A stretch of 64,000 nt of DNA from Escherichia coli (GTDB taxonomy: Bacteria; Pseudomonadota; Gammaproteobacteria; Enterobacterales; Enterobacteriaceae), in the NCBI RefSeq assembly GCF_003334815.1, contig NZ_QOWO01000007.1; one strand, given 5' to 3'. The notes beneath the pieces are model-generated. The model was not told the DNA's origin, did no database searches, and was given only the letters and a program-made list of their open reading frames with translations. Within the stretch, counting starts at the first letter, position 1. Every line of letters begins with the position of its first letter. This document shows positions 24,870-25,442 of this stretch, one piece after another. Both the position numbers and the translations under genes were made by a program.

Positions 24870-25106
24870 GCAGGGGGGCGCTTTTCCCCTCACCCTAACC
24901 CTCTCCCCAGAGGGGCGAGGGGACCGTATTGTGCAAATATTGTTACCCCAGCAACAAACAGGCTCATACAGCCCCTAACCCTTTCATGGCGATGGCTGGG
25001 ACGGTTCAGACCTTGCCGAATATTCTCCAGCACCGTCTCCATGTTTTCACCACAACAGCTATTCGGCTCGGTCTGCCCCCTCGCTCTTTCAGGGAGAGGG
25101 TGACCG
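24870..25106. repeat. Pair of inverted G/C-rich repeats (about 30 bp each) in the fabI-ycjD spacer
   Basis: 24886-24922 CCCCTCACCCTAACCCTCTCCCCAGAGGGGCGAGGGG, and its inverted relative at 25075-25102 CCCCCTCGCTCTTTCAGGGAGAGGGTGA. Confidence 0.6.
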
Positions 25107-25146
25107 GCGGTTCAGTTCCTGCAGAATATTCTCCAGCACCGTCTCC
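25017..25146. repeat. Direct repeat: the ycjD 3' end is duplicated about 107 bp downstream of the gene
   Basis: Identical 23-mer GAATATTCTCCAGCACCGTCTCC at 25017-25039 and 25124-25146, with similar flanks (CGGTTCAG...). Confidence 0.7.
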
Positions 25147-25442
25147 TCATTACAATCAATCTCGTTATTCCAGAAACGCAGCACGGTCCAGCCCTGCGAC
25201 TCAAGCCAGCTAGTGCGCCTGGAATCATAGGCAACTGCTAAATCATGCTGCCCACCATCCAGCTCAACGACTACACGCGCCGAGCAGCAAGCAAAATCGA
25301 GAATGTAGCTCCCCACTGGATGTTGACGGCGAAATTTGAAATCACTAAAACGTCGGCTGCGAAGATATCGCCAGAGCTTTCGTTCCTGCAAAGTGAGATT
25401 GCGTCTTAAATCACGCGCATTTGATTTAATTTTATCTATCAC
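25089..25442 (-). CDS. ycjD: DUF559 family protein YcjD (Vsr/restriction-endonuclease-like fold)
   Basis: 117 aa with GTG start at 25440-25442. Confidence 0.82.
   Translation of the reverse strand: MIDKIKSNARDLRRNLTLQERKLWRYLRSRRFSDFKFRRQHPVGSYILDFACCSARVVVELDGGQHDLAVAYDSRRTSWLESQGWTVLRFWNNEIDCNEETVLENILQELNRRSPSP

Follow-up and report, generated by a model that had tools for sequence, protein, structure and literature searches.

The DUF559 gene ycjD of Escherichia coli as a candidate nuclease partner of the BoxC repeats

The gene ycjD of Escherichia coli, analysed here in a 64,000-nt stretch of DNA (NCBI RefSeq assembly GCF_003334815.1, contig NZ_QOWO01000007.1; the whole stretch is called the window below), encodes a DUF559 protein, and we regard it, with moderate confidence, as the nuclease gene of a compact selfish or domesticated unit bounded by BoxC/PIT/TMECO repeats (BoxC for short). 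In a wider form, which we put forward tentatively and at somewhat less than even confidence, YcjD-type DUF559 proteins would be the cognate nucleases of BoxC/PIT-type triplex repeats throughout bacteria and would make up an unrecognised class of minimal selfish or domesticated elements, of which BoxC would be the gene-less singlets and doublets, and their nuclease activity would cause the rearrangement hot spots at BoxC, including the replacement of ycjD and the eefRABCD operon by one another. These readings draw on how the locus is built, the link between gene and motif across phyla, the inverted-repeat structure in many lineages, the relocation of the unit, the eef/ycjD alternation and the trend in BoxC copy number. 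The ycjD reading frame (open reading frame, ORF; 25089..25442, minus strand) encodes 117 amino acids from an annotated GTG start and is flanked by sapF, which stops at 25510-25512, and fabI, which starts at 24722, the three genes sharing the minus strand; the gene order yciW-fabI-ycjD-sapF-sapD is that of K-12, and the 563-bp segment with ycjD and BoxC (24880-25442) is 100% identical to K-12 MG1655. The original prediction, made from the letters alone, had named a 117-residue DUF559 gene between the sap operon and fabI, and the matches to Pfam and PRK09767 and the identity to K-12 confirm its place, size and family. BoxC/PIT has been known in E. coli since the 1990s, and the work on BoxC/PIT/TMECO reportedly includes that of Bachellier in the 1990s and of Hoyne and Maher in 2000. 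The gene and the repeats were each already known, and what appears to be new is their systematic partnership; no paper linking a DUF559 nuclease to BoxC repeats was found in the library searched, outside which the subscription literature lies.

The coupling of gene and motif was followed in a wider sample, a scan of one genome per species, which gave 80 DUF559 loci from many phyla, 68 of them with a short ORF. In 58 of these 68 relatives a hairpin with a pyrimidine arm starts on the gene strand no more than 60 nt before or after the stop codon, and a third pyrimidine block precedes it in 47 of those, while the expectation from flanking DNA (>400 nt away) is 0.014 per search window for the hairpin and 0.006 with the third block. 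The association with repeats that had been suspected for this family is right and far stronger than supposed. The sequence of the motif varies by lineage, its register with the ORF end is constant (see the examples from other lineages in Table 1), and the same type of ending is seen in relatives throughout the Proteobacteria, Melainabacteria and other phyla. The C-terminal tails PSPRPSP and SPSPQPSP(QRGEG) are translated BoxC, and the homologs in Enterobacter, Klebsiella, Kluyvera, Franconibacter and others, which are 58-67% identical to YcjD, nearly all end in PSPRPSP. It could be argued that BoxC is autonomous, or moved by another enzyme, and merely prefers the ends of DUF559 genes, so that the gene would be a target and not a partner; REP-like elements are known as insertion targets that cluster, BoxC pieces pile up downstream of ycjD, and BoxC persists in ycjD-negative strains. 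However, across phyla the sequence of the motif changes together with the lineage of the gene and its register with the ORF end is kept, the two flanking copies of a locus are 90-100% identical to one another, and whereas ycjD accounts for only about 1 in 18 K-12 BoxC loci, a BoxC is found at nearly every YcjD gene; we consider this explanation improbable. That relatives in many bacteria stand between triplex-forming repeats of this type suggests, short of proof, that an orphan repeat family known for 30 years has its missing partner in the DUF559 proteins.

Moreover, many loci outside the Enterobacteriaceae have the motif on both sides of the gene. A hairpin lies within 130 nt upstream in 31 of 62 loci (about 1.6% expected), and in 19 of 54 loci the upstream and downstream flanks match one another in inverted orientation over 22 nt or more at >=85% identity, versus 1 of 54 for the control region. 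At locus L089 an inverted match of 41 nt (97.6%), visibly extending to ~44 nt, stands on both sides of the gene; the repeat reads CCTTCCCCCATGCAGGGGGAAGGyTAGGATGGGGGTAGAAC, and its third block faces inward. This locus and L073, both from Gallionellaceae, have only the 440-bp unit in common and unrelated flanks, and the viral-contig set gave further independent examples of terminal repeats (L102 and L103). In many non-enteric relatives the unit consists of an inverted motif of 40-45 nt, a nuclease gene of 110-130 amino acids and the inverted motif again, about 440-650 bp in all. Where one genome holds two copies, as in some metagenome-assembled genomes (MAGs), these are only about 70% identical. 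Relocation is also seen among the enteric bacteria, where YcjD genes stand at differing core-genome sites: Enterobacter has them at hemW|yggN, Klebsiella and Kluyvera at cysP|yfeX, and the flanks of 18 Enterobacterales loci are of 7 unrelated kinds (sapF|fabI, the two just named and four others); E. coli carries yggM-ansB at the hemW|yggN site, so there is no empty-site comparison there. The common enterobacterial layout is the gene, a type-B BoxC over its stop, a spacer of 11-200 nt and a type-A BoxC.

As a separate observation on this layout, in Enterobacteriaceae (L005, L009, L012, L015, L017, L023, L029 and the window at 24886-25100) the two BoxC downstream of the gene stand head-to-head, type B first and type A after it, the third block of the latter directed away. 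Relative to the arrangement elsewhere, where type A would be upstream, this order is a circular permutation, and it would agree with a circular stage of the unit, which is pure speculation. In Klebsiella quasipneumoniae (L007/L008, 4375-4580) the interval between type-B and type-A BoxC downstream of the DUF559 gene is filled by three tandem units of ~70 nt, each with a BoxC-like hairpin (CCCTCTCCCTCAGCGAGAGGG), and comparable local arrays are seen in L020, L077, L079 and L083.

In the window, a repeat pair had been noticed beyond the 3' end of ycjD. The pair is real, an inverted repeat of 25 nt with 80% identity; its proximal member, however, overlaps the end of the ORF, and both repeats belong to the described BoxC/PIT/TMECO family, whose consensus is CCCTCNCCC N3-6 GGGNGAGGG N3 GGGNGAGGG (PMC4666352). 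The distal member (24886-24922) corresponds exactly to the element that Holder et al. list as TMECO #9, at K-12 coordinates 1351204-1351239, and the complete 36-nt motif occurs 1 time in the window versus 0 expected; the proximal one is a truncated type-B copy (Table 1). The ycjD stop codon (25089-25091) lies inside the loop of this type-B BoxC, and the last four residues of YcjD (SPSP) are encoded by its pyrimidine block. Its third block has gone through a 12-nt deletion relative to the ST69-like allele (ST, sequence type): the ST69-like alleles hold the complete type-B motif, CCCTCACCC CAA CCCTCTCCC TGAAA GGGCGAGGG, with the protein tail SPSPQPSP, and this 12-nt difference between ycjD alleles was already noted in the paper on the Eef pump (PMC12817139). 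Between the two BoxC there is a 39-nt direct repeat (25002-25040), overlooked in the original prediction, which is 90% identical to the ycjD 3' end at 25108-25146. In ST69-like alleles the relic still reads ..LSPQPSP and stop, then GAAAGGGTTAGGGGG, and the segment 24995-25045 is the stump of a second DUF559 unit. Some strains are without the DNA between the two 3'-end copies, which gives fused proteins of 147 amino acids (P0004/P0012). Apart from this 17-residue relic, tblastn found no second DUF559 paralog in the window.

Table 1. Features of the ycjD locus in the window and 3' motifs of relatives in other lineages
Feature	Start	End	Strand	Description
ycjD-specific haplotype segment	24872	25509	-	~638 bp; replaces ~7.9-kb eefRABCD
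Complete type-A BoxC/PIT/TMECO	24886	24922	-	CCCTCGCCCC TCT GGGGAGAGGG TTA GGGTGAGGGG
Degenerate BoxC after relic	24968	25001	-	In ST69-like alleles GAAAGGGTTAGGGGG follows the stop of the relic
Relic of second DUF559 gene's 3' end	24995	25045	-	NMETVLENIRQGLNRPS against NEETVLENILQELNRRS
Truncated type-B BoxC	25076	25100	+	CCCCCTCGCTC TTTCA GGGAGAGGG; first two blocks only
5' hairpin	25439	25483	-	Perfect 17-nt arms 25439-25455 and 25467-25483, 11-nt loop
Degenerate second small hairpin	25484	25509	-	CTGGAAG..CTTCCAG in other genera
Gallionella 3' motif				CCCCATCC TAA CCTTCCCCC..GGGGGAAGG
Xanthomonadaceae 3' motif				CCCAACCCTCCCC TTGAA GGGGAGGG
3' motif of MAG labelled Francisella				CCCTCCACCC TAG CCCTCCTCC..GGAGGAGGG

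The published work has treated BoxC/PIT/TMECO as an orphan intergenic repeat with no protein partner and lists ycjD only as a flanking gene, whereas in the window one copy runs into the end of a coding sequence, and the repeat family goes together with a nuclease gene. Holder et al. (2015, PMC4666352) reported that G/C-rich motifs of the BoxC type form intrastrand triplexes in vitro, that TMECO motifs are always intergenic and mark unusually variable loci by a mechanism they called unclear, and that no link to mobile elements was found; neither DUF559 nor an endonuclease appears in their main text. The 3' motif might be thought to be only an expression signal, a terminator or an mRNA-stabilising hairpin or triplex, with the dispersed BoxC as unrelated look-alikes. 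A G+C-rich hairpin right at the stop codon is where a terminator would be, and the 5' hairpin over the ribosome-binding sequence and ATG (see below) indicates structural control of ycjD expression. On the other hand, no T-run follows the type-B BoxC hairpin at the ycjD stop, and in earlier work cited by Holder et al. PIT/BoxC elements had neither promoter nor terminator activity (PMC4666352). Furthermore, a terminator requires neither a third block nor an inverted upstream copy, and in E. coli both types, A and B, are nearly the same at the gene and at the dispersed sites; of the explanations considered here we find this one the least probable. Predictions of promoters and intrinsic terminators gave nothing above chance, and Rfam gave only sub-threshold matches to generic hairpins.

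The protein itself has the features of a nuclease. Pfam DUF559 (PF04480) matches YcjD over the full length (E 1.5e-49, positions 2-109 of the 109 in the model), the NCBIfam equivalog PRK09767 matches it with 267.8 bits (cutoff 218), and the only Pfam families that match, DUF559 and MTES_1575, are both PD-(D/E)XK. Its match to PDB 3HRL, an unpublished structural-genomics entry from Neisseria gonorrhoeae, has an E of 1e-27. An AlphaFold2 model made from 16 homologs reached a mean predicted local distance difference test score (pLDDT) of 91.1, and Foldseek against PDB with this model found 3HRL (E 3.5e-7), 3R3P, the catalytic domain of I-Bth0305I (E 5e-5), and E. coli Vsr, 1VSR (E 0.078, probability 0.97). 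On the strength of this model we are confident that YcjD has the Vsr/EDxHD-type PD-(D/E)XK nuclease fold, in agreement with the Vsr-like fold proposed from the sequence alone. A check of the active site, which had been suggested as a way to try that proposal, found no loss of catalytic residues: E20, D49, D62, H66 and D73 are kept, and they are invariant among relatives that are 52-88% identical. By their spacing, the hidden Markov model alignment to 3R3P and the published mappings, they appear to correspond to E25/D51/H64/H69/D97 of Vsr, to which E170/D196/N208/H213/D222 of I-Bth0305I are equivalent (PMC3239194); the active site of Caulobacter VsrA is E73/D102/D115/H119/D124 (PMC12907096). 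As a side result, Foldseek also found a domain resembling the YcjD model in mitoribosomal proteins of apicomplexans and ciliates (Toxoplasma gondii 9I05/9G6K, Tetrahymena 6Z1P), which fits reports of Vsr-like domains of the FASTK/RAP type in organellar RNA-binding proteins.

Since the fold and the catalytic pentad match those of Vsr, YcjD might instead be a host nuclease of repair or damage response, a solitary Vsr-like enzyme that nicks mismatches as VsrA does, with BoxC merely accumulating alongside. The Caulobacter DUF559 protein VsrA triggers the SOS response when the solitary methyltransferase ScmA is missing, and the YcjD family is widespread and mostly chromosomal, with only 13 relatives among 2.9 million viral contigs, which also leaves little association with phages. 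But E. coli already has a Dcm-linked Vsr, no methyltransferase gene adjoins ycjD, whose neighbours are sapF and fabI, and 38% of E. coli genomes do without the gene. A repair role also leaves unexplained the repeat-built ORF end in most of the short-ORF loci, the inverted upstream copy and the joint relocation of gene and repeats, and we think it unlikely, if somewhat less so than the explanations by insertion targets or by expression signals, each of which likewise leaves the coupling of gene and motif unexplained. A role in anti-phage defence was dropped because PADLOC gave 0 matching families at E <= 0.01; PHROGs added nothing for ycjD, and according to the literature COG2852 is only occasionally co-located with UG26 reverse transcriptases.

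The gene had been described as sitting alone in its interval, but it is one of two alternative alleles of the sapF-fabI interval, the other being eefRABCD. In the published survey ycjD occupies it in phylogroups A, B1 and C and in ST69 and ST182, while the ~7.9-kb eefRABCD occupies it in B2, D, E and F (PMC12817139), and we confirmed the latter in O157:H7 (L091 2257-10272 versus window 24845-25510). The homology of the two haplotypes stops after the sapF stop and resumes at ~24872, a few bases past the type-A BoxC, which sets the extent of the ycjD-specific segment in Table 1. The eef haplotype of O157 has a shortened ycjD 5' hairpin right after sapF (CACCTCATCCTGA..TCAGGATGAGGT), which is either a relic of the unit or a hairpin that doubles as the sapF terminator. 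Among 5426 complete E. coli genomes, 3378 (62%) carry ycjD once, and in nearly all of these the ORF is uninterrupted at >=95% identity. In the same search, 5 of 3379 ycjD matches were on plasmids, and one genome had two copies.

In addition, the number of BoxC tends to be higher in E. coli genomes with ycjD. From Table S7 of Holder et al. (PMC4666352), the A, B1 and C strains, in which ycjD is present, have 13-30 BoxC (K-12 23, W 30, IAI1 29), while among the groups without ycjD there are 1-2 in B2, 6-7 in F, 11 in O157 (E) and 13-15 in D strains. We counted BoxC-matching places in 60 evenly spaced E. coli chromosomes, leaving out the ycjD locus itself in the positive group, and found a median of 16 (10-25) in 37 ycjD-positive and of 8 (1-18) in 23 ycjD-negative chromosomes, a difference (Mann-Whitney p = 5e-8) that is confounded by phylogeny. 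The trend is supportive of a partnership between ycjD and BoxC, not decisive. Across genera, the BoxC-rich ones in Holder's Table S1, namely Enterobacter (70-143), Klebsiella and Escherichia/Shigella, have YcjD homologs (PMC4666352), and Salmonella, Citrobacter and Yersinia have no chromosomes in that table and are not named among the best 120 homologs.

Gene-less forms of the unit could be represented by the BoxC doublets of K-12, 4 of 5 of which are arranged like the two inverted repeats without a gene between them: a hairpin with its third block is followed, after 18-29 nt of spacer (28-29 nt in three of these four), by a third block with its hairpin. This is how MITE-like derivatives (MITE, miniature inverted-repeat transposable element) arising by internal deletion would look. 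Three of the four tail-to-tail doublets (L095-L097) have a common spacer of 28-29 nt, TAAWTWTTCGCRCCAGTGCYGGCCTGTTC, and the fourth (L098) has an unrelated one of 18 nt; all four have a common outer flank, GACYGAYCGAGC. With these parts the repeat measures about 115-130 nt, against the 36 nt usually quoted for BoxC. The doublet in L095 (K-12 3045800-3046280), when compared with L100/L101, stands together with ygfF between bglA and gcvP in K-12-like strains, while a short REP-like segment replaces ygfF and the doublet in B2-like strains and O157, an indel with BoxC at its edge.

The palindrome at the start of ycjD, which had been taken for one of two brackets around the gene, is real and its arms are perfect over 17 nt, but it is not an independent bracket; in other genera, where YcjD genes are at other loci, a homologous hairpin stands before their ATG. 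As RNA it has -30 kcal/mol (z = -6.7) and buries both a GAGG resembling a Shine-Dalgarno (SD) sequence and the annotated GTG start of ycjD. The second small hairpin next to it, which comes immediately after the sapF stop, marks where the ycjD-specific segment begins on the left. In the aligned upstream sequences of 14 enterobacterial units, taken from different loci, CATTCTGAC..N..GGCAGAGTG.GGGGATGG was conserved, with the CTGGAAG..CTTCCAG hairpin before it, and the minimum-energy fold in most of the 14 regions was a long hairpin including SD and ATG; the RNAalifold covariation for this hairpin was weak, with one compensatory pair. The palindrome had also been read as simply the sapF terminator, as the eef haplotype has it too, and this reading was revised because the hairpin precedes YcjD genes at other loci and in other genera. 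Transposase genes such as that of IS200 typically have their ribosome-binding site masked against transcription that reads through from outside.

The state of this particular copy is another matter, and whatever the family does, it is a serious possibility, which we rate not far below even, that the K-12-type allele of the window is an inactive relic that makes no functional protein. The B1 and ST69-like alleles start with ATG GAT AAA, while in the window allele this ATG has become ATA (codon 2) and the annotated GTG stands three bases upstream in the hairpin arm (25437-25442), that is, in the 3' arm and without a properly spaced SD. The 3' BoxC is shortened by the deletion described above; the ratio of nonsynonymous to synonymous substitution rates (dN/dS) between ycjD alleles is 0.36-0.57, on only 6-11 substitutions; and the B1 strain 2013C-3277 (L093) has N92H in the otherwise invariant FWNN motif, plus G84S, which may be a sign of decay in that lineage. 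Antisense signals of transcription and translation at the ycjD 5' end have also been described (PMC12817139). Against this stand the ORF, uninterrupted in nearly all carriers, and the catalytic residues, all of which are intact; a GTG start and read-through from sapF are also possible. Considering the ATA, the truncated 3' BoxC, the missing upstream BoxC and the fragment of a second copy downstream, we assume that the window holds a worn-down, decaying member of the family.

The function of ycjD, formerly given as unknown, can now be replaced by a testable hypothesis. In this proposal a YcjD-type nuclease would recognise and nick the structured motif as a hairpin, cruciform or triplex, and the nicking would drive or maintain the copying both of the unit and of the BoxC singlets and doublets that lie across the genome without a gene, in the way that a single-copy RAYT relates to its REPINs or a transposon to its MITEs. 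Nicking at BoxC would also account for BoxC sites as hot spots of rearrangement. In line with this proposal, BoxC loci show unusual instability, the ycjD locus is itself polymorphic for the replacement between eef and ycjD, and the protein is predicted to be a competent nuclease (pLDDT 91, invariant pentad), its nearest characterised structure being a homing endonuclease.

Several points weigh against it. To our knowledge, no biochemical or genetic evidence ties any DUF559 protein to BoxC, and we know of no precedent for a PD-(D/E)XK/Vsr-type protein as the sole mobility enzyme. The upstream BoxC is absent from the window copy and from all Enterobacteriaceae examined, both BoxC being downstream, and the enterobacterial copies are therefore not classical elements bounded by terminal inverted repeats. 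No target-site duplication is evident at L089, L041 or L044, and a clean pair of filled and empty sites was not found; the ygfF-gcvP doublet, tried as such a pair, turned out to be a complex replacement of ygfF and the doublet versus the REP-like segment and was uninformative on mechanism. The 28-nt doublet spacers were tried as remnants of the gene 3' end, and the shuffle test was not significant (p = 0.04-0.4), so the case for doublets as derivatives rests on geometry. The gene is single-copy per genome in E. coli, where the original prediction had spoken of multiple copies as common for such proteins; as many as 18 BoxC loci are found in ycjD-negative E. coli (O157 has about 12); the BoxC gradient follows phylogeny, and the correlation of ycjD with BoxC is therefore confounded; and the window allele, with ATA for ATG and an occluded start, may not be translated.

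Among known systems, the partnership of ycjD and BoxC would most resemble REPIN-RAYT with a different enzyme and a different repeat architecture. Both have a single-copy chromosomal nuclease gene flanked by a short structured repeat, which is also dispersed as intergenic singlets and inverted doublets and whose abundance varies with the presence of the gene (for BoxC in E. coli a trend confounded by phylogeny), and both show mostly vertical inheritance with occasional relocation. The main differences are that the predicted YcjD fold is PD-(D/E)XK/Vsr-EDxHD while RAYT is HUH/Y1, that BoxC is a three-block triplex motif while REP is a simple hairpin with a GTAG/CGTC tag, and that the end of the ycjD ORF is itself repeat-encoded and the mobilisation of its unit putative. 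The minimal insertion sequences of the IS200/IS605 type, with their MITE derivatives, are likewise very small units with one small nuclease gene and structured hairpin ends, a 5' hairpin that hides the ribosome-binding site and gene-less derivatives that outnumber the gene; the YcjD unit, however, is without an HUH transposase, and its ends are inverted repeats with a triplex-type third block.

I-Bth0305I (3R3P) is the closest functionally characterised structure, with the pentad (E, D, N/D, H, D) in common, and is a selfish nuclease that promotes the copying of its own gene; YcjD is likened to it by structure. It has N-terminal NUMOD/HTH (helix-turn-helix) modules and a location in a phage group I intron, unlike YcjD, which is a bare 117-residue domain with a short basic N-terminal helix pair and is chromosomal, intergenic and repeat-bounded. 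Unlike the sites of homing endonuclease genes, the ycjD site has eefRABCD as the alternative allele and not an empty site. With Vsr and Caulobacter VsrA, itself a DUF559 protein, YcjD shares the predicted fold and the catalytic residues, and by analogy its chemistry would be Mg-dependent nicking of distorted DNA; it differs from Vsr in having no linked cytosine methyltransferase and no Vsr zinc site, and in being accessory and repeat-coupled.

DUF559/COG2852 is among the larger families of uncharacterised nucleases. If the proposal is true, an orphan repeat family and an orphan enzyme family would explain one another, a second partnership of repeat and nuclease, with another enzyme fold, would join REPIN-RAYT, and there would be a candidate cause for BoxC-linked rearrangements such as the loss of the EefABC efflux operon in E. 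coli A, B1 and C. As a further observation, Holder's Table S1 lists 17 TMECO motifs in Caulobacter crescentus NA1000, which has two SOS-induced DUF559 genes, and one of these (VsrA) causes DNA damage when ScmA methylation is absent.

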